From assembly GCA_964647685.1 (NCBI GenBank), contig CAZYJE010000006.1, forward strand, positions 25,624 to 89,623: 64,000 bases of DNA, given 5' to 3'. The DNA is from an uncultured Pseudomonadota bacterium (lineage in GTDB: Bacteria; Babelota; Babeliae; Babelales; Vermiphilaceae). Position 1 is the stretch's first letter. Each line of letters starts with the position of its first letter. Under the pieces are notes generated by a model, which saw only the letters and a program-made list of their open reading frames with translations, did not search any database and was not told the DNA's origin. The translations under genes and the position numbers were made by a program. Below are positions 3,069 to 62,324 of the stretch, one piece after another.

Positions 3069-3090
3069 AATAAAACACATACTATAAAAA

Positions 3091-3129
3091 AGCCAGTTGT
3101 AACAAAAAATGCTACAACTGGCTTTTTTT
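3091..3129 (+). terminator. rho-independent terminator after galU
   Basis: An 11-bp perfect stem AGCCAGTTGTA / TACAACTGGCT followed by a T6 run and preceded by an A run. Confidence 0.7.
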
Positions 3130-3261
3130 AAAAATTTAAAGTAATATTTTCACGATTGTCATTGCTAAAATACATCCTTTTTATGAGCAATTATTGCAAT
3201 TAGAAAACTTTAGTTGTTAAAATTTATTTATACATGTCTATATATAAATGTGGGATTTATT

Positions 3262-3486
3262 ATGAATAGTATAAAATATAAAATAGCAGCTGCTTTAACC
3301 TTATTACCAATTTTTCTTTTTTCTTGCCCTACTCATCTTGGCAGAAAAAAACTAAGAGTTCGCAAGTTTTTTAAGTATCAGCTTGACTCTAAGTATGATA
3401 AATATATTGCTACTCTTAAAAAAATAGAAAAAGATCTTAAAAAAAATATAAAACAGTTAATTGTTAAATACCAAAACAGTAAATAA
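3262..3486 (+). CDS. small putative lipoprotein
   Basis: ORF track 3214..3486. The internal ATG at 3262 gives MNSIKYKIAAALTLLPIFLFSC, i.e. a signal peptide with a lipobox-like LFSC. Orphan. Confidence 0.4.
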   Translation: MNSIKYKIAAALTLLPIFLFSCPTHLGRKKLRVRKFFKYQLDSKYDKYIATLKKIEKDLKKNIKQLIVKYQNSK

Positions 3487-3495
3487 GGAAACAGT

Positions 3496-3723
3496 ATGAA
3501 AAAAACTTTATTTTTATATACTTTTCTTTTTTCTTTTTTTTTAAAAGCTAGCAATGATTGTATGGATAACTCTCATCATTTAAAAGAACCTTATGATAAT
3601 AAATCGTATCGTAAGGTTCTTTGTAATTGTCCTTGTAAAAAGTATAAAATCTACGAAGATCGAGGAAGATGTAGCAAATGTAAACATTTTCGCGACCCTA
3701 AAAAAGAAAGATGGGAACTGTAA
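3496..3723 (+). CDS. small secreted Cys-rich protein
   Basis: RBS AAGGAAAC lies 5 nt upstream. Signal-like MKKTLFLYTFLFSFFLKA is followed by CNCPC...C..C spacing (zinc-knuckle-like). Orphan. Confidence 0.45.
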   Translation: MKKTLFLYTFLFSFFLKASNDCMDNSHHLKEPYDNKSYRKVLCNCPCKKYKIYEDRGRCSKCKHFRDPKKERWEL

Positions 3724-3726
3724 AAG

Positions 3727-6132: not shown

Positions 6133-6201
6133 TTTTTATTCCTCTTTATTAAGAATTCATTAACAAAACTTATGTTTAATTAAAAAAATAATCAACCTAT
6201 T

Positions 6202-6331
6202 CGTCTTTGCGAACTTGCGTAAGCAAGTGTGGCAATCTAGTTAATTTTGTTTTTCTTCCGTCTAATTTATATTTTAATAATTATTGAAGTTATTTAATTA
6301 ACTGGATTGCCACGCTTCGCTCGCAAAGACG
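6202..6331. repeat. GC-rich inverted-repeat element, locus A (U' - 57-nt AT spacer - U); REP/REPIN/MITE-like
   Basis: 6300-6331 (AACTGGATTGCCACGCTTCGCTCGCAAAGACG) is identical to 62442-62473. 6202-6242 is its imperfect inverted partner and carries an inserted 16-nt hairpin. Confidence 0.75.
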
Positions 6332-6514
6332 TAATGATATTTATAACATTAATATTTTTGACTTTTACTGCTAAAGTATACTGTTTCTCTATAGCTTATA
6401 GGCAATAATTGATTTGCAAATCTTATTTTATCTTTTATAATTACAGGTGTTATATAGTTATATGTATGTAACTATTATCGTTTCACTCGTTTTATTCCTT
6501 ATAAAGGAGAATTT

Positions 6515-6649
6515 ATGAATACTTTTGATTGGTTAAAGCAAAAAGATTCATTTTTTTCATTGTCTCACTTTTCTATTGTAAACGCTTTTCTTTTATGTGC
6601 AGTCTCGTTTTTATGCACGATTATGTATCTCGGTATTATTAGCAAATAA
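6515..6649 (+). CDS. possible 44-aa membrane peptide
   Basis: Below the ORF-track cutoff. Strong RBS AAAGGAGAA lies 5 nt before the ATG. Product: MNTFDWLKQKDSFFSLSHFSIVNAFLLCAVSFLCTIMYLGIISK, with a hydrophobic C-terminal half. Confidence 0.3.
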   Translation: MNTFDWLKQKDSFFSLSHFSIVNAFLLCAVSFLCTIMYLGIISK

Positions 6650-6703
6650 TCACGCTAAACTAAGTTTTTTTAATTTTTTAATTTTTTATTGTAAAGGACT
6701 AAC

Positions 6704-7995: not shown

Positions 7996-8514
7996 GTGAA
8001 AAAATTAAGAATAATAGCATTGGCAGCACTAGCTGGATTATCTTTTTCTGTTGAGGCAAAAGAAATATCAAATATATCTGCTCAAAGAAAGAGCATTACA
8101 ACAAGTGTTGGTAAAATTTGGAAAAAATTAAAAACTCCAAAAGGACTTTTTATAGCAGTTCCTGCATTATTTGTTAGTAATCAATTATTTACAAATAAGC
8201 CATCAAATAAGTTTAATTATAAGAAATTAGGTTTTGAGCACCCAGAGCAAGTTTGGTATTTCATCAACGAAGTTTTAATTGGTTGCTTGAAAAAAGATGC
8301 TTCATTAAAACCTAAATTTAATGAAGATCCTAGCAAATGCAAAATGGTTCTTTCAAAAGGGCAAAAAGCACAAGGTGTTCTTGGTAAAACAGCATCATTT
8401 GCTATTGGTTCTATGAAGTTACCATTAAAACTTGTAACTACAATTGCAGGTATTGCAGTAGGATTAGAAATTTTAAATGATAGTCTTTTATCAGATCTTG
8501 AAATTTCTTCTTAA
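7996..8514 (+). CDS. hypothetical secreted protein
   Basis: ORF track 7990..8514 (TTG start). The GTG at 7996 lies 7 nt after AGGA and gives the signal peptide MKKLRIIALAALAGLSFSVEA. Orphan. Confidence 0.5.
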   Translation: MKKLRIIALAALAGLSFSVEAKEISNISAQRKSITTSVGKIWKKLKTPKGLFIAVPALFVSNQLFTNKPSNKFNYKKLGFEHPEQVWYFINEVLIGCLKKDASLKPKFNEDPSKCKMVLSKGQKAQGVLGKTASFAIGSMKLPLKLVTTIAGIAVGLEILNDSLLSDLEISS

Positions 8515-14656: not shown

Positions 14657-15043
14657 GTGAGTAAAGCTAAATTATCTGTTATGATGCGTGCTACTAAAAT
14701 ATTAAAATATGCTTATGGGTTATTTTTCATTATTGCTGGCGCTGATAAGTTTATGAACATGATTGTTAAATGGGAGCGCTACATAAGCCCAATGATTCTT
14801 AACAAGCTTCCAATGATGTCTGATACTTTTATTAAAATAGTTGGTGCAATAGAAATGACAATTGGTGGTTTGATACTTGCCCATTGTGCTTGTCTTGGTA
14901 GCATGCTTGCAATTGGTTGGATTGGCCTTGTAATAATAAATTTACTTTCTATGGGGCGTATGTATATGGACGTTGTTGTGCGTGACATAATGATGGCTGT
15001 TGGTGCATACGTTATGGGAATGCTTGCTGGTGAGAAAAAATAG
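14657..15043 (+). CDS. small polytopic membrane protein (DoxX-like?)
   Basis: ORF track 14624..15043. The GTG at 14657 lies 6 nt after AAGGAG. It has 3-4 hydrophobic helices, and YGLFFIIAGADKF resembles the DoxX N-terminal motif (weak). Confidence 0.45.
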   Translation: MSKAKLSVMMRATKILKYAYGLFFIIAGADKFMNMIVKWERYISPMILNKLPMMSDTFIKIVGAIEMTIGGLILAHCACLGSMLAIGWIGLVIINLLSMGRMYMDVVVRDIMMAVGAYVMGMLAGEKK

Positions 15044-15119: not shown

Positions 15120-15872
15120 ATGACATTGTTTATAACAATATTACTGTATTTAATTTTTGTTCTTTGCTTAGTTGCTTATAAAAAAGATATAAGTATTGCA
15201 AACTTTACATGGGGTGGAGGTTGTGCTTTAGTTGCACTTTATGCAGCTGTTTTGAATGAAAATGTACATATAAAACAGATTGTTGCAGTAAGTATAACCA
15301 CTTTGTGGTGTATGAGAATGGTTGCTCATTTGTATGTTCGTTATACAGGTAAAGATCCAAGGTTTTTATTGTGGAATGGGCACAGTGGAGTCTATGCAGT
15401 TATTAAAAGTGCTGGATATATTTTTTGTATACAGCTTCCATTGTTGCTTGTAATGTCTGTTCCTATTTTTTTTATGATGAAGCAAAATAGTTTTACTGTT
15501 TTTACAAGGTTTGAATATTTTTTGATTGATTTGTGGCTTTTTGGTTTGTTGTATGAAACTGTTGCAGATTATCAGTTATATAGATTTTTATCGGTTTCTA
15601 AGAAAAAAAATGTAGTTATGTCCACAGGTTTGTGGCGATACTCGCGGCATCCTAATTATTTTGGAGAAATAGTCCTGTGGTGGGCATCAGCTTTTTTTGT
15701 TTTTATGTCTGTAAAGAATATAATAGTTTTTGTAGCACCTATAACAATTACCATACTTTTAACATGTATTTCTGGTGTGCCGCTTATTGAAAAAGCAATG
15801 AAAAATAATAAACATTATCAACAATATAAAAAGCAAACAAGCGTTATTATTCCGTGGTTTGTGCGTCATTAG
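15120..15872 (+). CDS. DUF1295 / steroid 5-alpha-reductase-like membrane protein
   Basis: 250 aa and polytopic. The C-terminal motif WRYSRHPNYFGEIVLWW is characteristic of this family. Confidence 0.7.
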   Translation: MTLFITILLYLIFVLCLVAYKKDISIANFTWGGGCALVALYAAVLNENVHIKQIVAVSITTLWCMRMVAHLYVRYTGKDPRFLLWNGHSGVYAVIKSAGYIFCIQLPLLLVMSVPIFFMMKQNSFTVFTRFEYFLIDLWLFGLLYETVADYQLYRFLSVSKKKNVVMSTGLWRYSRHPNYFGEIVLWWASAFFVFMSVKNIIVFVAPITITILLTCISGVPLIEKAMKNNKHYQQYKKQTSVIIPWFVRH

Positions 15873-16317
15873 TGTGGTTTAGTTTTTCTACTTTGTGTAA
15901 AAGTGAATGTATTTCTTCTAGTAAGATTGTTAATCTTTTTTCTAAACCAAGCTCTTTAAGAACAATTGCTATAGATCCAAAGGGTCCAAGAGCGTATAGT
16001 GCTGGTGAATTGGTATTATATTGATAATTTATATCGTCAAATTCAATTTGTAGAGCTGCAATTTTCTCTTGCTGGTAAGATATATTTTTGGAAAGTAAAG
16101 AGAGTCTATTGAGTTTTTGTTGTGTTTGGGCAAGTACGTTTTGAATTTTTTCGTCAATGGTATGTATTTTTATTGCTTGAAATGTTTTACTTTTTTTTTG
16201 TGCAGTATATTTTTTTTTATTAACTATCGTAAGGAGTTTTATAAAAAAACATAGTAATAAAAAAAGACAAAAATCTTTTATATAATCTTTTACTGTGTTC
16301 ATATTTTTCCAATTCAT
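15847..16317 (-). CDS. hypothetical membrane-anchored coiled-coil protein
   Basis: 156 aa with one N-terminal TM segment (FCLFLLLCFFIKLLTIV). Its 3' end overlaps the convergent gene by 26 nt. Orphan. Confidence 0.45.
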   Translation of the reverse strand: MNWKNMNTVKDYIKDFCLFLLLCFFIKLLTIVNKKKYTAQKKSKTFQAIKIHTIDEKIQNVLAQTQQKLNRLSLLSKNISYQQEKIAALQIEFDDINYQYNTNSPALYALGPFGSIAIVLKELGLEKRLTILLEEIHSLLHKVEKLNHTNDAQTTE

Positions 16318-16560: not shown

Positions 16561-17088
16561 ATGAAAAAACAATTATTGTTTATAGTGGTAGTAAATTTAT
16601 TTTTAATACATACATCGTTTGCAAAAATAGATGTAAACTTGTATAAAAAACTTATTAAAAATCCAAGAGCAATTAGAATTAAGTGTACTGTTGCTCGAGC
16701 ATATGAATCGAATCATTTTTTGGCAAAATTAGAAGTTTTGACTGCTAAAATAAAGCGCTCGCTCCTTGTAGAGTATGTTTTTAAAAATGAAGATGATTGC
16801 TCTATAAAATGTAAAGAACCAATTTCTGAAGAGTTAAAAAATGAGTTAACGCTTTTTGCTAAAAATATAGCAAAGAAAATTTATTTTGAGCCGATTGCTT
16901 GGAGAACGTTATCTTTTGAAGGTAGTTCTACTGTAAAGTCAGCAGTTGCTTTTAATTTATTATCGCTTGATACAGAAGAAATAAAAAATGATTACAAAGC
17001 AGCATTTAACTCTATTAAAGAAAAATATCGTGATTATGTGGTTCAAGAATTAAAAGCTGCTGTAGAAAAACATCAAGATAAAGATTAA
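16561..17088 (+). CDS. hypothetical secreted protein
   Basis: 175 aa. RBS AAGGAAGAG upstream; signal peptide MKKQLLFIVVVNLFLIHTSFA. Orphan. Confidence 0.5.
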   Translation: MKKQLLFIVVVNLFLIHTSFAKIDVNLYKKLIKNPRAIRIKCTVARAYESNHFLAKLEVLTAKIKRSLLVEYVFKNEDDCSIKCKEPISEELKNELTLFAKNIAKKIYFEPIAWRTLSFEGSSTVKSAVAFNLLSLDTEEIKNDYKAAFNSIKEKYRDYVVQELKAAVEKHQDKD

Positions 17089-50349: not shown

Positions 50350-50421
50350 CTGGTATCTAAAATGAAAAAAAATGGTTTTTTACTTCTGGTATCTAAAATG
50401 AAAAAAAATGGTTTTTTACTT
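50350..50421 (+). repeat. perfect 36-bp tandem duplication (x2) spanning the pseudopilin start codon
   Basis: CTGGTATCTAAAATGAAAAAAAATGGTTTTTTACTT occurs at 50350-50385 and again, identically, at 50386-50421. Confidence 0.9.
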
Positions 50422-50760
50422 ATAGAAATAATGATTTTTCTTGGAGTGATGAGTATATTTTTTATAACCATTAGTCAGTACTTTACTACTTTACTCATTA
50501 CTTATGAAAATAGTAATAAAAAGATAGAAGCATTTAATAAAGCATCAAAAATACTAAATTCTTTATTGCAAAACTATGATGATTCAGTCAATAGCAAAGA
50601 TACTATAATTTCTGAAGTTTCTTCTGGAATAAAATTACCAGCTATTTTTGTAAATAATAATAAAAAGAAAACTTTCAAGCCTATAAAAATAACAACAAAA
50701 TGGGTCGATACGAATGGCAATGAAAAAGAAATTCAACTTGTTTCAGCCTGTGTTGTTTGA
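50398..50760 (+). CDS. pseudopilin / type IV pilin-like protein
   Basis: The prepilin leader and methylation motif MKKNG|FLLIEIMIFLGVMS starts at the second ATG (50398). ORF track starts at 50362, in the duplicated copy. Confidence 0.7.
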   Translation: MKKNGFLLIEIMIFLGVMSIFFITISQYFTTLLITYENSNKKIEAFNKASKILNSLLQNYDDSVNSKDTIISEVSSGIKLPAIFVNNNKKKTFKPIKITTKWVDTNGNEKEIQLVSACVV

Positions 50761-51269
50761 AAATGAAAAGCTCAAATGAAAAAGGATTTAGCCTTATAGA
50801 GTGGCAAATATACTTTTTGCTGCTTATAATGGCATCAATTTTACTTTTTCATTCTTTTTTTATAATACAAAAGTTTCTTATTAAACAAAATAAAAAATTG
50901 CAAGCTATAACTGAACTTCATACAGCATATGATCTTTGCAAGCGAGATATACTAACGGCAGATTATAATGTAAAAAATTGGATAAAAAGTGAAGTACACA
51001 GTTTTTTATATAAAAAAAACAACAAATATATTGGCTGGAGATTTAATAAAAAAACAAAAAAACTATATCGAACAAGCGGGGTTTATGATGCAAATAATCA
51101 AAACTGGAAAAAGAAAAAAGTAAGCTTAATTGCTGAAGATATAACTGATTTTACTTGTATATATACTATAAAAAATGAAAAAATAAATTTTATTACTCTA
51201 TCAATAGTCAATGATGTAAATTCAATATATCAAAAATGCTATCTAAAAAATAAAGTAATAAAAATATGA
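50757..51269 (+). CDS. pseudopilin / type IV pilin-like protein
   Basis: MKMKSSNEKG|FSLIEWQIYFLLLIMASI carries the GFxLIE prepilin motif. 4-nt overlap with the upstream gene. Confidence 0.65.
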   Translation: MKMKSSNEKGFSLIEWQIYFLLLIMASILLFHSFFIIQKFLIKQNKKLQAITELHTAYDLCKRDILTADYNVKNWIKSEVHSFLYKKNNKYIGWRFNKKTKKLYRTSGVYDANNQNWKKKKVSLIAEDITDFTCIYTIKNEKINFITLSIVNDVNSIYQKCYLKNKVIKI

Positions 51270-51727
51270 TTAAAAATAATCAATCTGGCTCATCGCTACT
51301 GCTTGTTTTTTTTGTTACATCTATTGCTTTATTATGCAGTCAATCAGTTCTTTTTCAAATTTTTTTATCAAAAAATGTATTAACAAAAAGGTATCAATTA
51401 ATACAGCAAAGATATATCACTGAAGGAGTTTTGCGTTATGCATTTTTCTTATGCTGCAACTATCAAGATTTTTTTATAAAAAAAGTGCATAAAAAAAATG
51501 AACCGATTACGATTGATACCGGAAATTGGAAACTTAATAACGCTGCCTATAAAGCAACATTAACGTTATTGCAAAAAAATGAAACTATCTTTGCACAAGC
51601 TACCACAGTCAATGAGCAAAATAGCATTACCGATAAAGTTTCTTGCTCTATTTTGTATAAAAATTTAGAAAAAAACCCATCTGCATACGCTATTGAAATT
51701 AAAAATTGGAGCTATGAAAATGATTAA
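51266..51727 (+). CDS. minor pseudopilin-like protein (degenerate N-terminal motif)
   Basis: MIKNNQSGSSLLLVFFVTSIALL has a hydrophobic pilin-like N-helix without Glu5. 4-nt overlap with the upstream gene. Confidence 0.45.
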   Translation: MIKNNQSGSSLLLVFFVTSIALLCSQSVLFQIFLSKNVLTKRYQLIQQRYITEGVLRYAFFLCCNYQDFFIKKVHKKNEPITIDTGNWKLNNAAYKATLTLLQKNETIFAQATTVNEQNSITDKVSCSILYKNLEKNPSAYAIEIKNWSYEND

Positions 51728-53060
51728 ACAATTTATAGCAACTACTGCTTCTGCTATCATGCTTGCTGGCGCTTTAATATTTCCTTACTATTTATGTGTA
51801 GGGTCATTTTTATTTTTAGTTCCACTTTTTTATTATGGCCTAACAAATAAGTTAAGTTTTACGCATGGATTTTTATGGGGAACAACATTTTTTATTTTTC
51901 ATTCTTATGCAAGCTTTGTAACAATAATGAACAATGAAAATAAGGTTGGACCTTTTTTAGCTTTACTCATAATTATTATATTTTATGCAATACAATCTGG
52001 CCTGTGGTTCTATTTTTTTCAATATTTAAACAAGAAAATCAACCCGATAATAAGCCTTACAGTAACAACATGGCTTTTTTTTGTATGGATTTCCTTCGGA
52101 TCGCTCTTTTTTTTGGGCGACTTTATAGGTTACCCTTTCTCTTTTCCACTTTTGCCGCTTGCTGCGCATCCAAAACTTTTATTTATTTTGCCTTATGCAG
52201 GCTTAAAAGGGACAATGTTTTTACTTATTCTACTGTCTATGTCTTTAACATTATTAATAAGTAGAAAAAATAAATATATGCTCCTTTTGTTTTTTTCATG
52301 TAGCTCTGTCTTTTTAATTGGTTTTTTTGTCTCTCAATCTCAACGACCTCAACCACCATATTTATCTCAATTTGGTCATATTGTTCCTCATCAAAAATAT
52401 ACTCATCCTCTTGATATAGCTCAAGATGTGTATTATAAAATGAAAAAAATGATAGAAACTAAACCAACAGTGCAATATATTTTTATGCCTGAATCAAGTT
52501 ACAATTTTGCCCTTAATAAAGATAGAAAGGTAATAAAGATGTGGTACAATAATGCTCTTTATAACAATAAACATCTTTTTATTGGTGCTTCTTATAAAAA
52601 CAGTTCTCATCATTTTTTCAACTCTTTGTATTGGATTTACCAAGGAAATATAAAGCAGGTTTATAATAAAAGTAGACTTATGCCATTTTTAGAATATATA
52701 CCATGGCCTTGGAGTCAGATTAAAACTATAAAAAACTTATTTCTTCAATCAAATACAGAATTTTGCTCGGTAAATGCTCAATCAGAAGAATTTTTCCTTT
52801 CAAAAGATCTATCTTTTGAGCCTTATATTTGTGCAGAAATATTTTTTGGTAAAAATTGGAAAAATAAAAAAAAGTATAATCATCAAGAAAAACCTTTACT
52901 TTTAATAGTTAGTGATATCTCTCTGTCTTATGATTATCAAAAAAATCTTATGCTTTTATGGGCAAAAGCAAAATCTATAGAACTCCAAAGAGATATTTTT
53001 TATATTGGTTATTATTTTGCAAAGTGGATATCAAAAAATGGTTCTATAATCACTATTTAA
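51720..53060 (+). CDS. lnt: apolipoprotein N-acyltransferase
   Basis: Multi-TM N-terminal half plus a CN-hydrolase domain. Candidate triad contexts are MPESS (Glu), YNKSRLMPFLEYIP (Lys; compare E. coli YDKHHLVPFGEFVP from memory) and YICAEIFF (Cys). ORF track starts at 51693; ATG 51720 lies 8 nt after GGAG. Confidence 0.75.
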   Translation: MIKQFIATTASAIMLAGALIFPYYLCVGSFLFLVPLFYYGLTNKLSFTHGFLWGTTFFIFHSYASFVTIMNNENKVGPFLALLIIIIFYAIQSGLWFYFFQYLNKKINPIISLTVTTWLFFVWISFGSLFFLGDFIGYPFSFPLLPLAAHPKLLFILPYAGLKGTMFLLILLSMSLTLLISRKNKYMLLLFFSCSSVFLIGFFVSQSQRPQPPYLSQFGHIVPHQKYTHPLDIAQDVYYKMKKMIETKPTVQYIFMPESSYNFALNKDRKVIKMWYNNALYNNKHLFIGASYKNSSHHFFNSLYWIYQGNIKQVYNKSRLMPFLEYIPWPWSQIKTIKNLFLQSNTEFCSVNAQSEEFFLSKDLSFEPYICAEIFFGKNWKNKKKYNHQEKPLLLIVSDISLSYDYQKNLMLLWAKAKSIELQRDIFYIGYYFAKWISKNGSIITI

Positions 53061-53145
53061 AAAGAATGTAAGTTTTCAATAGGTTAATTTTGCGTTATAC
53101 TAATATAAAATTAATTACATTATTTTGTGACTAGAAGGTTTATGC

Positions 53146-53601
53146 ATGAGAGTATTTTTATTAAAAGATATCAAAGGAATAGGTATTGCTGGTGAAATTG
53201 TTCCAGTTAGTAATGGATTCTGGAATAATTTTATGCAAACAAGAAAGTTAGGCGTAAAAATTACACCTGCAAATGCTAAATTTTATGAAGAAAAAGCTAA
53301 AGTCGTAGAAAATAGAAAGTCTGTTATAGAGTCTAATACTTCTATGCTTGCAGAAAAAATTAAAGGACTTACTATTACTATTAAGCACAAAGTGCACGAT
53401 GATGGAAAACTTTATGCATCAGTAAATGGTTCTGAAGTTGCTGAAGAACTTTTAAAACATGGTGTATCTATAGCAAAAAATCAAGTTGAGTTTGCTAAAT
53501 CTATCAAAAAAGTTGGTACTCATCTTGTAACAATTAAACTTTCTTCTAAATTAAAACCACAATTAAAGCTTAAAATAATTTCAGGTAACAATAACAACTA
53601 A
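53146..53601 (+). CDS. rplI: 50S ribosomal protein L9
   Basis: MRVFLLKDIKGIGIAGEIVPVSNGFWNNF matches the L9 N-domain. 151 aa, with the usual position upstream of dnaB. Confidence 0.92.
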   Translation: MRVFLLKDIKGIGIAGEIVPVSNGFWNNFMQTRKLGVKITPANAKFYEEKAKVVENRKSVIESNTSMLAEKIKGLTITIKHKVHDDGKLYASVNGSEVAEELLKHGVSIAKNQVEFAKSIKKVGTHLVTIKLSSKLKPQLKLKIISGNNNN

Positions 53602-53622
53602 AGTTTTAATTGGAGAAAAGTA

Positions 53623-54999
53623 ATGCAAAAAGGTCAGCGTAAAAATAACCAGATAAAGGTTATAAATCCTGAACGAATTTTAGGTAAATCTTTACCCGCT
53701 AATATAGACGCAGAAAAAGCTGTGCTTGGCGCATTATTGTTAAACGATGAAAACGTTAATAAAGTTTCTGAAATAATTTTACCAGAAGATTTTTATAGTT
53801 ATCAAAACAAGATCATTTATGAAATGATCTTGTTTGTTTTTCAAAAATATAATCGTTTAGATCTTGTCTTACTACAAGATGCTCTTAAAAAAAAAGATTT
53901 GCTTGAATCAATTGGTGGAATAAGTTCTCTTATTGCCTTACAAGAAGATATTCCTTCGCTAGGGTTGATTGAGCAACATTGTCAAATTATTAAAGAAAAA
54001 TCTATTTTACGAGATTTAATTAAATCAGCTACAAATATAATTACAAACTGCTACGATCAAGATGAAAAAAATATTTCTGCAGTTTTAGATAAAGCTGAAC
54101 AAACAATTTTTCAGATATCAAGCAAACGAACAAGTCAAAATTTTGTTCAACTTAATATTTGGCTCAAAAAAACATTTCAACATTTATCTAGCATTAAAAG
54201 TCATAGCAAGGGGATTACTGGAATACCATCAGGCTATAAAAAACTGGATAGCATGTCATCTGGTTTTCAAAATGGAGATTTTGTTATTTTAGCAGCTCGT
54301 CCTTCGATGGGTAAAACCGCTTTAGCGCTTACTTTAGCAAGCCATGCTGCAAATCAAGGATTTACAGTTGGATTCTTTTCTTTAGAGATGTCAGCAGAAC
54401 AGCTAACATTGAGGCTTTTGTCTTCTGAATCAGGTATAGCTCATCACAATATCAGAAATGCTACTATTACTTCAGAAGAATGGGTTGACCTTACCAATGT
54501 TGCAGCTCGACTTGCTGAAATGAAACTATTTATTGATGACACTGCCGGAATGAATATTATGGATTTGCGAGTCAAAGCTCGTAAATTAAAAGCTGAACAC
54601 GATGTTCAATTAATTGTTATTGATTATTTACAACTACTCAACTCAAGTAGTCGTCACGAAAATAGACATCAAGAAGTTTCAGCAATTTCTCGTGCCCTAA
54701 AAGCACTTGCAAAAGAGTTAAAAATACCAATTATATCTCTTTCTCAACTTTCTCGTGCTGTCGATAGCCGTATGGACAAAAGACCAATGTTATCTGATCT
54801 TCGTGAATCCGGAGCTATTGAACAAGATGCTGATTTAATTATGTTTTTATACAGAGATATTGTTTATAATTCTGAAACAGAAAACCCAGCTCTTTCAGAA
54901 TTAATAATTGGAAAACAAAGAAATGGTCCAACAGGGACAGTTTATTTAAATTTTTCTAAAGAGTTAACAAAGTTTGAAGATATTGGAGATGCCTATTAG
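53623..54999 (+). CDS. dnaB: replicative DNA helicase
   Basis: N-domain LPANIDAEKAVLGALLL, Walker A ARPSMGKTALAL, Walker B LIVIDYLQL and SLSQLSRAVDSR. No intein. Confidence 0.95.
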   Translation: MQKGQRKNNQIKVINPERILGKSLPANIDAEKAVLGALLLNDENVNKVSEIILPEDFYSYQNKIIYEMILFVFQKYNRLDLVLLQDALKKKDLLESIGGISSLIALQEDIPSLGLIEQHCQIIKEKSILRDLIKSATNIITNCYDQDEKNISAVLDKAEQTIFQISSKRTSQNFVQLNIWLKKTFQHLSSIKSHSKGITGIPSGYKKLDSMSSGFQNGDFVILAARPSMGKTALALTLASHAANQGFTVGFFSLEMSAEQLTLRLLSSESGIAHHNIRNATITSEEWVDLTNVAARLAEMKLFIDDTAGMNIMDLRVKARKLKAEHDVQLIVIDYLQLLNSSSRHENRHQEVSAISRALKALAKELKIPIISLSQLSRAVDSRMDKRPMLSDLRESGAIEQDADLIMFLYRDIVYNSETENPALSELIIGKQRNGPTGTVYLNFSKELTKFEDIGDAY

Positions 55000-55070
55000 A
55001 TTCATTTTATAATCATTAAAGAAAAATCAATAAATATAATATATGTGGAAATTATATAATAAGGTCAAAA

Positions 55071-55172
55071 ATGAATTTTTTTAAAAAATATGATTTAATA
55101 GCTTGCTTTACAGCATTTTTTATTGTTTCTGGTTTATTTGCAAAAGGACTACACTCACTGTTTATACATTAA
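55071..55172 (+). CDS. possible 33-aa hydrophobic peptide
   Basis: Below the track cutoff. AAGG lies 6 nt upstream. Product: MNFFKKYDLIACFTAFFIVSGLFAKGLHSLFIH. Weak. Confidence 0.25.
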   Translation: MNFFKKYDLIACFTAFFIVSGLFAKGLHSLFIH

Positions 55173-55199
55173 AAATTAATTAAAATAGGGATCAACGTA

Positions 55200-56681
55200 A
55201 TGAAGAAAATATTTATAATAAGTATTTTCTTTTGTTTTTTTCAAGCAAAAGGAAATACATGGTGTACAATTCAAGAAAATGTTTGCAATGCTGTTGTACA
55301 AATATTTGTACAAGCTATTTCAACAAATATATTAAAACCTTACGAAACACCACAAGAAAAATCTGGCACTGGCAGTGGATTTATCATTAATGAAAAAGGA
55401 TATATTATTACCAATGCTCATGTCGTTAATCAAGCAATTGGTATTTGGATTTATATACCATCTATTGGCAAACATTTAATGAAAGTAGAACTTGTCAGTA
55501 TAGCTCCAACAAAAGATTTGGCTTTACTTAAAATTAGTGATTTTGATCTTGAATTTATTAAAAATAAATTAGGAGCTATCCCTTATGTTGCTTTGGGAAA
55601 TTCAGACTCTCTAAAAAAAGCAGAAAATATTTTAACTTTGGGCTATCCAATGCCAACAAGCCAATCAACATTAAAAATAACAAAAGGTATTTTTAGTGGA
55701 AAAGCAATCATTAATAATCAAGAAATGTTGCAAATTGATGCAGCTGTCAACCCAGGAAGTTCTGGATGTCCTGTTTTTAATAAAGCTGGAAAAGTTATTG
55801 GTATTACTCAATCAGGAATTGTTGAAGCACAAAACATTGGTTATATTATTCCTGTAAATAGATTAAAAAATGCCCTTAAGCATATGTACAAAATACCTCT
55901 TCTTCATAATACATTTCTTGGACTTTTAACAACCAATGCAACAATTAGTTTAACCGATTATTTAGGCAATCCTCAACCAGGTGGATGCTATGTTATTGAT
56001 GTGATTAAAAATAGTGCACTTGAAAAAGCTGGTGTTCAAAAAGATGACATGATCTATGAAGTGAATGGGTACGAACTTGATATTTATGGAGAGATGAGCG
56101 TTGAGTGGTCTCAAGATAGAATCTTTATAGTAGATTATATTGAACGACTTTCTATTGGCGATAAGGTAGACATGAAAGTTTACAGAAAAGGGAGGCTGTT
56201 GAGCTTGACTGCAACAATTTGCGAATCTGATCTTCCTAAAATCAGAGCAATTTATCCTGGTTACGAAAAAATCGATTATGAAATTTTTGCAGGAATGATT
56301 GTCATGCAATTAAATATTAACCATATTCAACTGTTTAAAAATTATGCACCAGGACTTTTAAAATATACACAAATGAATTTACAAAATGAGTCAGTTTTGA
56401 TAATTACTCATATTTTTAACAATTGTTTACTTTCAAGAGCACAAACGATAAGTGCTGGAATGGTTGTAGAAGAAATAAATAACCAACCAGTCAAAACACT
56501 ACAAGATTTTAGAAGTATAATAAAAAGCAGTCTTGACGATAAACATTTATTAATAAAAACGATGGATACAATATCAAGTTATTCAAGTTCTATTTTTACT
56601 GTACTTGCAATGCAAGATGTTATACATGAAGAGCCACAACTTGCTCAAATATATGGTTATCCAATGTCGAATCTATTGTGA
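55200..56681 (+). CDS. HtrA/Deg-family serine protease with signal peptide (paralogue of 11719..13191)
   Basis: Signal MKKIFIISIFFCFFQAKG; triad contexts TNAHV, DLALLKI and NPGSSGCPV. Same PDZ and C-terminal arrangement as the paralogue. Confidence 0.85.
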   Translation: MKKIFIISIFFCFFQAKGNTWCTIQENVCNAVVQIFVQAISTNILKPYETPQEKSGTGSGFIINEKGYIITNAHVVNQAIGIWIYIPSIGKHLMKVELVSIAPTKDLALLKISDFDLEFIKNKLGAIPYVALGNSDSLKKAENILTLGYPMPTSQSTLKITKGIFSGKAIINNQEMLQIDAAVNPGSSGCPVFNKAGKVIGITQSGIVEAQNIGYIIPVNRLKNALKHMYKIPLLHNTFLGLLTTNATISLTDYLGNPQPGGCYVIDVIKNSALEKAGVQKDDMIYEVNGYELDIYGEMSVEWSQDRIFIVDYIERLSIGDKVDMKVYRKGRLLSLTATICESDLPKIRAIYPGYEKIDYEIFAGMIVMQLNINHIQLFKNYAPGLLKYTQMNLQNESVLIITHIFNNCLLSRAQTISAGMVVEEINNQPVKTLQDFRSIIKSSLDDKHLLIKTMDTISSYSSSIFTVLAMQDVIHEEPQLAQIYGYPMSNLL

Positions 56682-57163
56682 TTATCTTAGGAGTTGATCC
56701 TGGTTGTAGATTTTCTGGCTTTGCAATCTTAAAAAAAGAAAAACAAAAATCTTATTTATTAGATTATGGCTGCTTGACAATGTCGTCTAAGCAGCCACTT
56801 GTCCAAAGAATTGGCATTTTCCATGAATTTTTTACAGAAAAAATAATTAAATGGAAAGTGACAAGCATAGCGCTCGAAACTTCTTTTCTAGGAAAAAATG
56901 CACAAAATTTTTTAAAGCTTGGTTATTTAAGAGGTATCTTATATTTACTGTGCAACAACTACAGTTTACAACTTCACGAGTTTTCACCTCGAGAAATTAA
57001 ACTATCGGTAACTGGTTATGGCGCTGCAAGTAAAGATCAAGTTGCAAGGGCAGTTGTCCAATTTTTTCCTGCAATTAAAACTAAAATACCAATTCGTGAT
57101 GATGTAACTGATGCCCTTGCAATTACTCTATGTGGATTATGGGCCAGCAAAAGATTTAATTAG
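56678..57163 (+). CDS. ruvC: crossover junction endodeoxyribonuclease RuvC
   Basis: (GTG)IILGVDPG..., the ALE acidic residue, and the C-terminal DVTDALAI. Overlaps the upstream stop (GTGA). Confidence 0.9.
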   Translation: MIILGVDPGCRFSGFAILKKEKQKSYLLDYGCLTMSSKQPLVQRIGIFHEFFTEKIIKWKVTSIALETSFLGKNAQNFLKLGYLRGILYLLCNNYSLQLHEFSPREIKLSVTGYGAASKDQVARAVVQFFPAIKTKIPIRDDVTDALAITLCGLWASKRFN

Positions 57164-57247
57164 CAGGAATTTATTGTTTTATCTAATATTTCTATGCAAA
57201 ACTCTAAGTAAGAAAGCTTTATTAGTTAAAAACTAAGGAGAGTCTTT

Positions 57248-57751
57248 ATGAAAGGTTTGCAATCATTACTGACAGGCAATATTTATAATAACGATAACAA
57301 TATTTCATTATCTGACTATTTTTATAAATCAATGTATATTGATAAACCATTTACCGATGAAGCTATTTTGTACTTACAAGAAATTTTTTTACAAAATGGT
57401 TTTCATTTTTTACAAGTTGAAGATATAGAGTTTAGTAGAACATTAGTGAAAAATTTTTTAAAATCACTTAATTGTCATAATGATATTGCGGCAATAAGTT
57501 TAGAAGCTATTGATTGCGATAAAAAAGTAAATAATATTTATCATAATCTTATATTTAATGGTTATATTGACGGCAGGCTCCATAGTGACTTTGAAGAATT
57601 TTTTTTGGATCAATGGTTTTATGATTTTCTATGGATCGAAGCTTCTAAAAAATTACTCAACTCATCTTGGATTAATCCATTTTTAAAAAAAATGAAAGAA
57701 TTGAATTTTGACAAAGAAATTCCAATTTTGATTTTTTTTTATCAAGAATAA
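57248..57751 (+). CDS. hypothetical cytoplasmic protein
   Basis: 167 aa with RBS AAGGAGAG upstream. Orphan. Last plus-strand gene before the polarity switch. Confidence 0.5.
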   Translation: MKGLQSLLTGNIYNNDNNISLSDYFYKSMYIDKPFTDEAILYLQEIFLQNGFHFLQVEDIEFSRTLVKNFLKSLNCHNDIAAISLEAIDCDKKVNNIYHNLIFNGYIDGRLHSDFEEFFLDQWFYDFLWIEASKKLLNSSWINPFLKKMKELNFDKEIPILIFFYQE

Positions 57752-58021
57752 TCATATTACAAAGATTTTTTAATTTTGAAACTTTTTAAAAAAATAAAAC
57801 AAAAATTTTAGACTGATAGGGTAATTAGGCTCAAATTTTGAATTTAAGATGAAAGTCATACAAAAGGTATAAATATTCGACAATCATTAAAATCTTTCAA
57901 TACGGTTAAACCTGAAAAACGTTTTTTGAGTAATAATAAAATTCTAATTTCTAAATGAATAAATAATAATTTTGTCGACACTTAAAGTTTTCACAATTAA
58001 AAATCTATAATAGATGTATTT

Positions 58022-58054
58022 AAATAAAAATATCCGCTCAATTTAGAGCGGATA
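58022..58054 (-). terminator. rho-independent terminator for the 58208..58690 transcript
   Basis: TATCCGCTC-AATTTA-GAGCGGATA. On the minus strand it is followed by TTTTTATTTA. Confidence 0.55.
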
Positions 58055-58060
58055 TAATAA

Positions 58061-58088
58061 AATTCTGATAATGTATATTATGTAAAAA
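58061..58088. other. dif: candidate dif site (XerC/XerD chromosome dimer resolution site)
   Basis: AATTCTGATAA-TGTATA-TTATGTAAAAA. The central hexamer is identical to E. coli dif, the right arm matches E. coli at 9/11 positions and the first 9 nt of the B. subtilis arm, and the inner ATAA of the left arm is conserved. The site lies at a convergent polarity switch. Confidence 0.65.
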
Positions 58089-58207
58089 ATCTTATGCTTT
58101 ATTTAAAGGAAAAATCAAAGTTTAGATAAGTTACTTATAAAAATCCATGTTAACTAGATATTAAAACATTTAAAATTAAAAATCAATAAATTAATAATTT
58201 TCTTTTA

Positions 58208-58690
58208 TCATTTCTTAAAACTTAATAAATATCCATCAAAAGAATATTTTGATTCTTCATAGCACTCATTGAAGCTACTACTTTCTTTATCGTGCCTATC
58301 AAAAATTTTTTTTACTTGGCAAAAGCATTCATCAAAACTCTCTTTTTTAATAAAAAATTGATCCGAATAAAAATTATTACTTATACATAACTTTTTTAAT
58401 GACCTGTTACTATCTATTTCATCTCTATTTCTTTTTTTACTATTCTCAATATTTTCAAACAAACCACTCTCTTTTACACTATCAATATCCGGGTCAAAGA
58501 CTTTTTCTCGTAAATAGTCATCTAACCTTTTCTCTCGATCAGTAAGAAAATTTTTAATCTTTTTCTTGCTTCTTACATGTGTTGTACAAACTGTACGAAA
58601 TTTTCCATCGAGACATTTAACTCTTCTGGAAACAGAGGCAATTTTATTATTGAATAACAATACTAGTGCAAATAAAAATACTTTATACAT
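58208..58690 (-). CDS. hypothetical secreted protein
   Basis: 160 aa with signal-like MYKVFLFALVLLFNNKIASV. Orphan. Confidence 0.5.
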   Translation of the reverse strand: MYKVFLFALVLLFNNKIASVSRRVKCLDGKFRTVCTTHVRSKKKIKNFLTDREKRLDDYLREKVFDPDIDSVKESGLFENIENSKKRNRDEIDSNRSLKKLCISNNFYSDQFFIKKESFDECFCQVKKIFDRHDKESSSFNECYEESKYSFDGYLLSFKK

Positions 58691-58788: not shown

Positions 58789-59775
58789 TTATTTTAGAAC
58801 ATAAGCTACTCTTTCTAGATAATTTCTATTATTAAATATAAAATATTTAATTGAATTATTTTCATAATTATATCTTGGAACTAATGGAAAAATTGACTCT
58901 TGTAAATATTTTTTACTATCACTAGTTAAAACCTCTAACGGCACGCTAAAAGAAAAAAGTTTTTCATCACTCCATATACCACTTTTTAAATTAATTTGAT
59001 GATAAAAAAATTTTATTGCTTTATCATTTTTATCTATAGCTGCTTTATGCGTTAAGTAAAAACCCATAGAATTAGAAGCCATTGTTAAAAACAAAATAGG
59101 ATCTTTTTGGCTGCTAATAATAGTCAATGATTGCAACTCATCTATTTCTATTTTTTTTTCTTTATTTTCTTGCTCTAACAATAAAGCCACTTTTTCTTCA
59201 AAAGAACAACTACCATCAATAAATAAATCTTTTTTCATTAAAGGATATGCAGCGCTTTTTATGGAGTACAAACCATCAACTCTTTCAACATAAAATAACA
59301 AATCATCTATTTTTTGAGGGTACAAATAATCAATGCCTTCCTTTTCTAGTAAAATAGAGACATTACCATCAACGCCTATTTGATACAGACCGTAATTGTC
59401 ACAATATTTCGCACTTGCATAAAAACAAACACTATCTATCCAATGCAGTAAAGTAAAATTATATAGGGGATAGTATAAATCAAGAGACTGGGGGCAACGT
59501 TTATGAAATTTTTTGACTCTGATTCTTCCATTATCAATAAAGCTAAAACCACTTTTGTTTGGAAGCAGCCTTACTCCAAATGGAACATAAGAAGAAGAAA
59601 GAAGCTTTTCTTTTTTAGTTGTTTTCTTGCTCCATAAAACAACTTGAATGTTACGCCCTTCTTTTTGGTCCATGCAAATAAATCTATCTGAATCTAACTG
59701 AGCAACAGGGTAAAAATAATCCTGAGAATATAAAGAAGTGCAGAAAAATAAAATAATGAATTTTAGAAACTTCAT
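58789..59775 (-). CDS. hypothetical secreted protein (possibly beta-rich/propeller-like)
   Basis: 328 aa with signal MKFLKFIILFFCTSLYSQ. Recurrent short beta-strand-like segments. Family not recognised. Confidence 0.55.
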   Translation of the reverse strand: MKFLKFIILFFCTSLYSQDYFYPVAQLDSDRFICMDQKEGRNIQVVLWSKKTTKKEKLLSSSYVPFGVRLLPNKSGFSFIDNGRIRVKKFHKRCPQSLDLYYPLYNFTLLHWIDSVCFYASAKYCDNYGLYQIGVDGNVSILLEKEGIDYLYPQKIDDLLFYVERVDGLYSIKSAAYPLMKKDLFIDGSCSFEEKVALLLEQENKEKKIEIDELQSLTIISSQKDPILFLTMASNSMGFYLTHKAAIDKNDKAIKFFYHQINLKSGIWSDEKLFSFSVPLEVLTSDSKKYLQESIFPLVPRYNYENNSIKYFIFNNRNYLERVAYVLK

Positions 59776-59835: not shown

Positions 59836-59875
59836 AAAAAATAAACCACCGCGGCAACCGAAGTTATCGCGGTGG
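59836..59875 (-). terminator. GC-rich hairpin with T-run on the minus strand (terminator of recF read-through or of a small RNA)
   Basis: CCACCGCG-14 nt-CGCGGTGG (59846-59875). On the minus strand it is followed by TTTATTTTTT. Confidence 0.5.
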
Positions 59876-60092
59876 AAAAAAGGAGAGTAGTAATGAAGCC
59901 TAAATTAAAGCGTGCTATCAATTACTTGATTAACACTATAATAATAATACTGTAAATGATCAGAATGTCAATTAAAATAAAAAATAATAATTCAACATTA
60001 TAAATGATTATTAAGTATCATTATCAATTAGAATATAACAGCCTGGAGCTACTGTCAACAGCCCCAAAATAGAAAAACCCTTTCAAATGGGG

Positions 60093-61181
60093 CTATTGGA
60101 TATTTAAAGAGCATTTTTTAGCATTTAATTGCATCAGCAAGTCGTCAAATAGCCCTTTGTTAATAGGTGAGGTAAAAATAAGCTGATTTGAAAGAGTCGA
60201 AAGAAATGATATAAGTTTTTTGAGCCTCAATTCGTCAAAATCGGTCATAAAATCGTCCAAAAGCAATGTTGCAAGCCCTTTTTTATCTTGCAAGTGCTGT
60301 AATTGAGCTATTTTAAGGAGTAAAACAGTTAATTTCTGCTGTCCTCGTGACGCATAATTTTTACTCTTCTTGTCTTGAAACTTTATCAATATGTCGTCTA
60401 AATGGGCGCCAAACAAAGTTCTTTTGCAAGTAACTTCTTTTAAAGAGAATTCATGATCTTGCAAAAAAACAGCTACAGATTTTCCTATTACCTCTTTCTT
60501 AGGTCTAAATTCCAGGCAAACTTGTAGTTGTTCATCAAAAATAGTTGTTAACATTACATTAATGCGATTTTCAAAATCTTTGAGTAACTGTATGCGTAAT
60601 TTATGAATCTCAGCTGTTTTTTGCCATAAAAGCTTGGTCCAAACTACAAAAGAGTCTTTATCAATTTTAAAAGCTCTTAAAAGGCTATTTCTATTATCAA
60701 GTACTTTTTTGTACTCTCTAAGCATTTTACCATACAGAGGATCTTGTAATAAAATTGCCTGATCTATAAAACTTCTTCTAACCTCTGGGCCACCTTTAAT
60801 CAAAAAAAGATCATCTTCTGTTAACGTAATAATACGATAATGATCCATCAACTCTTTAAACGAACTAATATTTTTTTGGTTCAGTTTTACAAGCCGTTTT
60901 TTCTTTTCAAAGCCAACTTGCAAACTACAATCCATTCTTTGCTCATTTGTTCCAGAGAAAAAATCTGTTTTTATAAAAAAAGTATCTTTACCAAATTGCA
61001 ACAAATTGCCAGGAGAATATGTTCTAAAAGAACGAAGATAACAAAGATAATGAAGAGCTTCAAGCAAAGTTGTTTTCCCAACTCCATTTACACCTTGAAT
61101 AACAACAATTTTGTTATCAAGATCTAACTTTAAGCTATCAAAACAACGAAAGTTTTTTATCTCTATGTGCTTTATGTGCAC
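60093..61181 (-). CDS. recF: DNA replication and repair protein RecF
   Basis: MHIKHIEIKNFRCF..., Walker A GVNGVGKTTLLEAL, signature SRGQQKL and Walker B LLLDDF. Confidence 0.92.
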   Translation of the reverse strand: MHIKHIEIKNFRCFDSLKLDLDNKIVVIQGVNGVGKTTLLEALHYLCYLRSFRTYSPGNLLQFGKDTFFIKTDFFSGTNEQRMDCSLQVGFEKKKRLVKLNQKNISSFKELMDHYRIITLTEDDLFLIKGGPEVRRSFIDQAILLQDPLYGKMLREYKKVLDNRNSLLRAFKIDKDSFVVWTKLLWQKTAEIHKLRIQLLKDFENRINVMLTTIFDEQLQVCLEFRPKKEVIGKSVAVFLQDHEFSLKEVTCKRTLFGAHLDDILIKFQDKKSKNYASRGQQKLTVLLLKIAQLQHLQDKKGLATLLLDDFMTDFDELRLKKLISFLSTLSNQLIFTSPINKGLFDDLLMQLNAKKCSLNIQ

Positions 61182-61199
61182 GACCTACCTTATCTTATA

Positions 61200-62324
61200 T
61201 TAGTTATTTGCTGTTGGAGAAACCGGCATAACCAAATAAACCAAGTTGAAATTTTCTGTTTTTGTTTCAAAAATAATTGGTCGAGATGAATCTTTTAAAG
61301 AAAATCCAATAGTACTATCAGAAAAAACTTGGAGTCCATTTAATAAGTAAGGAGCATAAAAACGAATATTCATATTTTCACCATCAAATTTTTCCAGCGG
61401 TACATTTTCTTCTAGTTTACCAACTTCTTTATTTTGCATAGACACATTCATATAATCAGATGTAAAATCAAATTTTGTAGCAATAAATTGTCCAGAAAGT
61501 AAACAAGAAGACCTTCTTAATGTTTTTATAAAATGAGTTCTGTCTACCGTTGCTCCAACAAATCCTTTTTTATCTAAAATTGGTTGATACTCAGGAAATG
61601 GATCAACAAGTAATTTTGTAAAAAAGTTAAATGATTCGCCAGAAAAAACTAACTGATTATTGCAAACTCCAAGAAATACATGAGCTGAATTAGAACCTTC
61701 CAAAATCTTTTTTAGTTCAAAAATTGCTCGCCTTGGCAGTAACCATTTTTTATCTTGCTCTAATGTATATTTAGATGAAGTAACTTGCGCCAAACAATGA
61801 CCATCGGTTGCTGTCATTTTAAGCTGATCACCAGAAATCTCTAAATACAAACCGTTAAGAGCTGTGTTTGAATTATTTTGCGGAATCAAAAAAGCAACTT
61901 TACTAAGAATTTCAAGCAAAAAAGATGACTCCATTTCCATCAAATTTTCTATGCGCTCTGGAAACGGTGGAAACTCTTGCGCATCTTTAATCTTAAGAGC
62001 CAAATTTACTGATCCAGACTTAATCAAAAGTTGATCATTTTTCATGTAAAATTCAATTTCACCATCAAGCTCTTTTACAAAGTCAAAAATTCGACGCCCT
62101 GAAACTAAAAAAGATTTTGGCTCTTCGATATCGCTACTTTTGACTAAATAACTTGCTTGTAGACTAATTTCTAAATCTGTACTTTTAAGTACTAATTCTT
62201 TGTGCCCGATATGAAATAAAATAGATGTTGTCGTATCAAGTGTCGTACGTTTTGTACAAATAGGTTGCATAGAAGATAGAATTGCCATTAAAGATTTTTG
62301 ATCTACAACAAATTTATTTTTCAT
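61200..62324 (-). CDS. dnaN: DNA polymerase III beta sliding clamp
   Basis: 374 aa with a three-domain repeat pattern; LNGLYLEISGDQLKMTATDGHCLA and the C-terminal YLVMPV are typical DnaN. Confidence 0.93.
   Translation of the reverse strand: MKNKFVVDQKSLMAILSSMQPICTKRTTLDTTTSILFHIGHKELVLKSTDLEISLQASYLVKSSDIEEPKSFLVSGRRIFDFVKELDGEIEFYMKNDQLLIKSGSVNLALKIKDAQEFPPFPERIENLMEMESSFLLEILSKVAFLIPQNNSNTALNGLYLEISGDQLKMTATDGHCLAQVTSSKYTLEQDKKWLLPRRAIFELKKILEGSNSAHVFLGVCNNQLVFSGESFNFFTKLLVDPFPEYQPILDKKGFVGATVDRTHFIKTLRRSSCLLSGQFIATKFDFTSDYMNVSMQNKEVGKLEENVPLEKFDGENMNIRFYAPYLLNGLQVFSDSTIGFSLKDSSRPIIFETKTENFNLVYLVMPVSPTANN

Follow-up and report, generated by a model that had tools for sequence, protein, structure and literature searches.

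Gene order around the convergent junction

Within the window, the term used here for the whole 64-kb stretch of DNA that was analysed, two blocks of genes of opposite polarity face each other across a gap of 456 nt (57752–58207), and it is in this gap that the 28-bp sequence considered below is located (Table 1). The plus-strand block to the left carries genes recognised by NCBIfam models as those for L9, DnaB, an HtrA-like protease and RuvC, and ends with a gene for a protein of 167 amino acids (hyp167), while the minus-strand block to the right opens with a gene for a 160-aa hypothetical protein and continues with recF, dnaN and the gene for a tyrosine recombinase of the Xer family. Both blocks (53623–57163, plus; 60093–62324, minus) are thus transcribed towards the site. 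Counted over the window, 36 of 49 genes on the left are on the plus strand and 10 of 13 on the right are on the minus strand; the corresponding numbers of genes aimed at the site in the pooled relatives described below are 118 of 174 and 89 of 97. Closer to the site, the convergence claimed in a preliminary description of this DNA was found as claimed, all ORFs from 50362 to 57751 being on the plus strand and all ORFs from 58208 to the right edge on the minus strand. The further claim that the gap is the longest non-coding interval of the window had to be abandoned: 6133–6703 is 571 nt in length and is free of ORFs of 45 aa or more, and a second longer gap, 3069–3726 (658 nt), contains short ORFs only.

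The 28-mer itself, AATTCTGATAATGTATATTATGTAAAAA, lies on the plus strand at exactly the position previously given for it, and is read directly as AATTCTGATAA–TGTATA–TTATGTAAAAA, an 11-6-11 architecture with an inner ATAA/TTAT palindrome. It is present as a single copy in the window, where the closest other 28-mer differs from it by 7 mismatches. With the stop codon of the 160-aa gene on one side and a terminator-like hairpin on the other, it would be crossed by a minus-strand transcript before that transcript terminated at the hairpin and its T-run.

Table 1. Features of the window at and around the convergent junction.
Feature	Position	Strand	Basis or remark
dnaB	53623–54999	+	NCBIfam
htrA-like	55200–56681	+	NCBIfam
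ruvC	56678–57163	+	NCBIfam
hyp167 (167-aa protein), last gene of left block	57248–57751	+	no family match
GC-skew shift point	58000–58200		cumulative G-C maximum at 58130
Terminator-like hairpin, then T-run	58030–58055	-	10 pairs, 5 of them G-C, then TTTTTATTT
Putative dif core site, 28 bp	58061–58088	+	direct reading; position weight matrix; conservation in 17 other species
Left (XerC-type) arm, AATTCTGATAA	58061–58071	+	direct reading
Central region, TGTATA	58072–58077	+	direct reading
Right (XerD-type) arm, TTATGTAAAAA	58078–58088	+	direct reading
160-aa hypothetical protein, first gene of right block	58208–58690	-	converges on the site
recF	60093–61181	-	NCBIfam
dnaN	61200–62324	-	NCBIfam
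Xer-family tyrosine recombinase, XerD-like, 302 aa	62620–63528	-	NCBIfam; PDB match; BLASTP; residue alignment

Also present in the gap is a 16-nt direct repeat, ATAATAAAATTCT(A/G)AT, with copies at 57933–57948 and 58054–58069, the first situated 121 nt upstream of the site and the second covering the outer left arm plus the preceding 7 nt. By a hand estimate, some 0.05–0.1 such repeats would be expected by chance, and the repeat could be either the scar of an earlier Xer-mediated insertion or excision, or a product of chance.

A scan with DnaB, which also served to place the window as DNA from Dependentiae (TM6, Babeliales), was used to recover related loci of approximately 21 kb each (~20 kb read per genome), with one genome retained per species; the best relative exhibited 77% identity, and the locus itself is present as identical copies in several metagenome assemblies. 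Across the recovered Dependentiae loci the same order of genes is kept, L9-DnaB-(HtrA)-RuvC-(hyp167) converging with (hyp328)-RecF-DnaN-(Xer)-ProRS, an order of dnaB-ruvC and recF-dnaN which is unusually conserved for a terminus region. The immediate neighbours differ between species while the site persists. Throughout the phylum dnaN-recF is not found beside dnaA, and together with dnaB and ruvC flanks the putative terminus.

The hyp167 gene lies directly to the left of the site in at least ten species, often with its stop codon just 16–46 nt away, orthologues being present in loci L009, L013, L014, L016, L021, L024, L029, L030, L076 and L155. The protein has no Pfam or NCBIfam match and a single distant homologue, and its AlphaFold model (pLDDT 52) is of low confidence and too poor for a fold search.

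An Rfam search of the window at the gathering threshold returned two tRNAs only. A gene resembling that for a small RNA was encountered on the minus strand at 59842–59945, in the gap between 58789–59775 and recF, when loci lacking the 28-bp site were searched for shared words. Its 27-nt core, AGGCUUCAUUACUACUCUCCUUUUUUCC, is invariant in 19 Dependentiae species apart from one position in L022, a 21-nt part of it being exact in 19 of 19 species, those without the site included. The core is followed by a hairpin and U-run, with compensatory changes in 9 of the 13 hairpin pairs; the 5' part is variable, and TTGACA-like boxes are present upstream in several species. No Rfam family reached threshold, the best sub-threshold match being LhrC at 22 bits. 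The plus strand of the same locus reads as a Shine–Dalgarno sequence plus ATG, and the ORF so defined is not conserved. The gene may specify a CU-rich, anti-SD-like regulatory RNA.

Resemblance to known dif sites and conservation among Dependentiae

Reference dif sequences for Escherichia coli, Bacillus subtilis and Frankia alni were taken from Kono et al. 2011 (PMC3025954), and the window site proved to be identical at 21 of 28 positions to that of E. coli and likewise at 21 of 28 to that of B. subtilis. Three resemblances asserted in the preliminary description were upheld by these sequences: E. coli dif has the identical central TGTATA, the right arm agrees with its E. coli counterpart at 9 of 11 positions and reproduces the first 9 nt of the B. 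subtilis one, and the left arm keeps its inner ATAA. With the E. coli element, GGTGCGCATAA–TGTATA–TTATGTTAAAT, which is served by the XerC/XerD system, the window site thus shares the 28-bp length, the 11-6-11 layout and an identical 16-nt core, but differs from it in the outer left arm (AATTCTG in place of GGTGCGC). By comparison with the actinobacterial F. alni site, CACGCCGATAA–TGCACA–TTATGTCAAGT, the left inner arm is of the same CYGATAA type rather than the proteobacterial GCGCATAA, and the pattern TG..(C/T)A TTATGT is common to both; the outer right arm, however, is AAAAA and not CAAGT, and the phylum is unrelated.

The extent to which such resemblance exceeds chance depended on the measure applied. 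In 200 Markov-1 random sequences of 64 kb with the composition of the window (29% G+C), 25 (~12%) contained a 28-mer with no more than 7 mismatches to the dif of E. coli, B. subtilis or F. alni, and a loose version of the core pattern is expected some 3.4 times per window. The mismatch count was consequently dropped as a test of significance, and the earlier estimate that a match of this kind would be very unlikely by chance fails as far as raw similarity is concerned. By way of contrast, the exact 16-nt E. coli core has an expectation of 0.24 per window even with 2 mismatches allowed, and a position weight matrix (PWM) trained without the window assigned the site 33.3 bits, compared with 7.1 bits for the second-best position in the window and a maximum of 22.7 (mean 9.2) over the 200 random sequences. 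It is therefore by virtue of its conservation, as captured by the PWM of related sites, and of the rarity of its 16-nt core, rather than by its raw similarity to any reference dif, that the site stands out.

Seventeen other Dependentiae species each yielded one strong match to the motif (23–38 bits, with the runner-up at no more than 17 bits), always intergenic and always between the convergent ruvC-side and recF-side blocks, with the 11-6-11 layout and inner palindrome common to all 18 species and the site a single copy within each related locus of ~21 kb. The consensus across species is nnnTCTGATAA TGnATA TTATGTAAAAA, and a left arm of the proteobacterial type, CGCATAA, was recorded in four of them. 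When 148 nt around the sites were aligned, some 24 positions were conserved, of which ATAA and ATTATG were invariant, amid flanks that could not be aligned; the central 6 bp vary, with positions 3–4 free, as do positions 1–4 of the outer left arm. The arms are accordingly better conserved than the centre, and the XerD arm better than the XerC arm. The dif sites of other phyla follow the same pattern as described in PMC3025954, where they keep ATAA-N6-TTATGTnAA and the XerD-side arm is the better conserved of the two in all phyla reported.

Some departures from the common arrangement were recorded. In L030, and in this species alone, the site (8218–8245) is inverted relative to the flanking genes; it also has the proteobacterial-type sequence GCGTCGCATAATGTATATTATGTCAAAT. 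A second, weaker dif-like site (16.7 bits) is present in L017 at 14902–14929, 333 nt to the left of the main L017 site, and in L010, L012 and L017 ruvC is separated from the site by 2.5–7 kb of extra genes. The second L017 site and the extra genes in these three loci suggest insertions beside dif.

Strand composition at the site and the linked recombinase

The cumulative G-C skew of the window attains its maximum 69 nt from the first base of the site, and the skew switches sign there, from positive on the left to negative on the right. Since gene orientation also drives skew, the two effects were separated using the window prolonged on its right by 4.4 kb from a metagenome contig of identical sequence (68 kb in all). 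To the left of the site the skew was +0.133 for plus-strand and +0.002 for minus-strand genes; to the right, the values were -0.049 for plus-strand genes (n = 3 only) and -0.139 for minus-strand genes. These values indicate a component independent of orientation which flips from about +0.07 to about -0.09, the estimate for the right-hand side drawing on three plus-strand genes. In the 1.08-Mb contig L155 the switch occurs 630 nt from the site and the next 15 kb are negative in every 2-kb block, while in L168 and L169 it is within ~0.5 kb of the site and most 2-kb blocks beyond are negative, a few being weakly positive. The same sign change at the site, in weaker form, was evident in the pooled relatives. 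In closed relatives dnaB falls anywhere from 7 to 79% of the record, so there is no common start point. Hand calculation from contig ranges and site positions puts the predicted dif at about 1,100,583 in OY969699.1, 102,233 in OY970383.1 and 608,519 in OY969901.1, and at about 280,391 on CAYTCH010000001.1.

As a candidate replication origin the site was rejected: gene polarity is convergent, the skew runs from positive to negative, and there is no cluster of DnaA boxes. Specifically, TTATCCACA is absent from the window, and the 6 relaxed DnaA boxes detected there are scattered, with none in the gap. The genes dnaN and recF are usually origin-proximal, and their position adjoining the site counts against its being a terminus. 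For two cultured members of the phylum the origin was set by GC skew (PMC4378268, PMC6561590), beside dnaA in one case and at a DnaA box in the other case, so that the presence of dnaN-recF next to the site does not mark an origin. From the converging polarity and the local skew switch we infer that the two replichores meet at the site, in a position that would be opposite oriC.

The recombinase gene beyond dnaN, described beforehand as a XerD-type gene 4.5 kb to the right of the site, is indeed there and its product scores best against XerD: NCBIfam models returned 276 bits for XerD and 261 bits for XerC, both of them under the curated cut-offs, the best PDB match was E. coli XerD (1a0p), and BLASTP gave 172 bits to E. 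coli XerD and 148 to E. coli XerC. In an alignment with E. coli XerD the protein retains the catalytic R, K, H-x-x-R, H and Y. Its orthologues in seven further species likewise resemble E. coli XerD more closely than XerC, and orthologues named in the sources are called XerD.

The presence of this gene closely follows that of the site. All ten species that carry xer between proS and dnaN also possess the site, the gene being linked to it at a distance of 3–7 kb in 10 species, and L168 and L169, retrieved by means of the Xer protein alone as a forward test, both carry it. Conversely, none of the five species that lack the site at this junction and were read past dnaN (L018, L022, L024, L027 and L031) has an intact xer gene there: proS abuts dnaN in L022 (~14708–14738) and L031 (~16731–16772), and L024 retains at 15357–16028 a 270-aa xerD remnant devoid of the LLGH...IYTH region that includes the nucleophilic tyrosine. 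A search for a divergent dif in the loci without the site produced no ATAA-N6-TTAT candidate in common. In a rough DnaB tree most of the site-less loci group together in a single clade, some records of which bear the label Babeliaceae, and one or few losses are therefore more probable than five independent ones. Joint loss of site and gene is what a functional pair predicts; together with the L024 remnant and the report that Babela massiliensis is without FtsK, the joint absence suggests that this clade has lost the whole dimer-resolution system.

FtsK has been reported as present in one Dependentiae genome in the same publication that records its absence from B. massiliensis (PMC4378268). None was found among the window ORFs scanned, which amounted to ~29 of the ~60 ORFs of at least 100 aa and included all of those of 587 aa or more. 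All 6- to 8-mers were counted on the strands pointing towards the site in the 68 kb, and no skewed word resembling KOPS survived correction for multiple testing; the most skewed words, GTTGTA and AGTTGTTG, resemble coding bias, and the known KOPS/SRS words GGGNAGGG and GAGAAGGG are absent from the 68 kb.

Proposed role of the site and alternative readings

The element at 58061–58088 is in all likelihood a chromosomal dif, that of a bacterium of the Dependentiae (TM6/Babeliales). The proposal with which this study began, that of a XerCD-type dif at a probable replication terminus, thereby gains support from three directions: the copy conserved at the same junction, the skew switch, and the co-occurrence and co-loss of the site with the XerD-like gene. 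By analogy with the paradigm established in E. coli and in B. subtilis, the dif of which is served by CodV/RipX, two Xer protomers would occupy each copy of the site, one per 11-bp arm, the XerD-like protein encoded 4.5 kb away binding TTATGTAAAAA and a probable XerC-like partner encoded elsewhere binding nnnTCTGATAA. Two sister dif sites would then synapse, strand exchange would take place at the edges of the 6-bp centre, and a chromosome dimer formed by homologous recombination would be returned to monomers in a reaction probably triggered by FtsK at division, if the organism has FtsK. For binding, catalysis, the partner recombinase and control by FtsK alike, this is what we infer from the better-characterised systems. 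The arms are asymmetric at conserved positions, TCTGATAA as against the reverse complement TTACATAA, an asymmetry which is kept across species and which favours two different binding specificities.

In common with the XerC/XerD-dif paradigm, the site coincides with a local GC-skew shift point at which genes converge, and a XerD-like recombinase with its catalytic residues intact is encoded. Relative to that paradigm the Dependentiae arrangement is distinguished by several features. The site occupies a gene junction that is fixed throughout the phylum rather than a variable terminus region; the xerD-like gene is only 3–7 kb away; and XerC, FtsK and KOPS were not seen in the DNA read. For comparison, Kono et al. 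found xerD to lie mostly near the origin.

The alternative that fares best would retain the site as a genuine dif and assign both of its arms to a single recombinase, the linked XerD-like protein, after the manner of XerS/difSL, XerH/difH and XerL. Systems of this type are known from streptococci and lactococci (XerS/difSL), from Campylobacterota (XerH/difH) and from Legionellales (XerL). The likeness extends to the linkage of gene and site, which is typical of such systems and is seen here at 3–7 kb in 10 species, to the host-associated or reduced genomes concerned, and to the loss of gene and site together; moreover, only one xer gene was present in any 21-kb locus, no second Xer paralogue being found in the DNA read (the window and the ~21-kb loci), and the protein falls below the curated cut-offs for both XerD and XerC. 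Against these points must be set the asymmetry of the arms, preserved across species as in sites served by two recombinases, the classical 28-bp form of the site, the membership of the protein in the XerC/D family, and the location of its gene kilobases away rather than adjacent. A second gene could, in addition, sit anywhere beyond the ~20 kb read per genome, and the genome paper for Chromulinavorax destructans lists two xer genes, 'xerJ/D' (PMC6561590). With one xer gene seen, and that one linked to dif, a single-recombinase variant is accordingly kept in consideration as an unlikely alternative. An assignment to the XerS/difSL type in particular was rejected, the recombinase scoring 88.6 bits against the XerS model (cut-off 267) and the site being a classical 28-mer, not the 31-bp difSL, at 4.5 kb from the gene.

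A very improbable reading is that the 28-mer is not the chromosomal dif and represents instead an attachment site, or the scar of one, for a mobile element that uses Xer (an IMEX or prophage), or else a plasmid-type pdif. Similar cores do occur in 66 'viral' contigs of IMG/VR, some of them at both ends of prophage-sized elements; a 16-nt copy of the left half-site is present 121 nt upstream of the window site; and species differ by several kb in the distance from ruvC to the site. The flanks, however, are housekeeping genes in an order conserved throughout the phylum, the window contains no second site of 8 bits or more, and the flanking genes are found in none of the 66 viral contigs. Because IMEX elements use the real dif of their host for integration, the presence of one would not contradict the identification of the window site as dif.

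Among the viral contigs an identical dif-like 28-mer, ACTTTGGATAATGTGTATTATGTAAACT, recurs in several of ~54–58 kb (L098, L117, L118, L136, L137 and L145, together with L090 and L116, which are one and the same IMG/VR contig of 53,996 nt), and one viral contig carries it twice. These contigs have the look of one prophage family that has inserted at the dif of its host, and are unrelated to Dependentiae.

It is similarly hard to credit that the site serves as an operator for a transcription factor or as part of a bidirectional terminator region. Palindromic arms about a variable centre would also suit a dimeric repressor, and the site does stand between a stop codon and a terminator-like hairpin; nevertheless, its conserved bases are those given for dif of other phyla, ATAA-N6-TTATGTnAA, in PMC3025954, its presence or absence follows that of the xer gene, and it stays in place when the neighbouring genes change. 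Scarcely tenable is a chance AT-rich near-palindrome devoid of function: a reference dif is approached as closely in 25 of 200 random sequences and the loose core is expected about three times per window, but the motif is conserved at this junction in 17 further species amid unalignable flanks, with a PWM score far above the random maximum.

A more comprehensive picture, in which the phylum possesses a fixed cassette dnaB-ruvC / dif / recF-dnaN-xerD, possibly run by a single XerD-like recombinase, and one clade has shed both dif and xerD, is offered tentatively and, taken as a whole, is rather doubtful.

The identification of the site as dif adds an ordinary, well-known type of element, newly documented, to the inventory of a little-studied phylum, the additions being a fixed gene context that includes a linked xerD, and the loss of site and gene together in one clade; its mechanism would be the textbook one and should not surprise a specialist. 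No paper linking Dependentiae with dif, XerD or chromosome dimers was found in the open-access literature, and Dependentiae do not figure among the 16 phyla of the 2011 survey in the part of it that is accessible (PMC3025954).

In practical terms the site would serve to mark the replication terminus in the sequence of Dependentiae/TM6 genomes; as these are almost all metagenome assemblies with an arbitrary start, such a landmark helps with both orientation and quality checks. The fixed gene context, and the clade from which dif and xerD have been lost together, also offer a natural comparison through which to ask when host-dependent bacteria can drop dimer resolution. If dif and xerD have indeed been discarded, in a phylum where Babela is reported to be without FtsK, then some obligate intracellular bacteria with non-binary multiplication would manage without Xer-mediated resolution of chromosome dimers.
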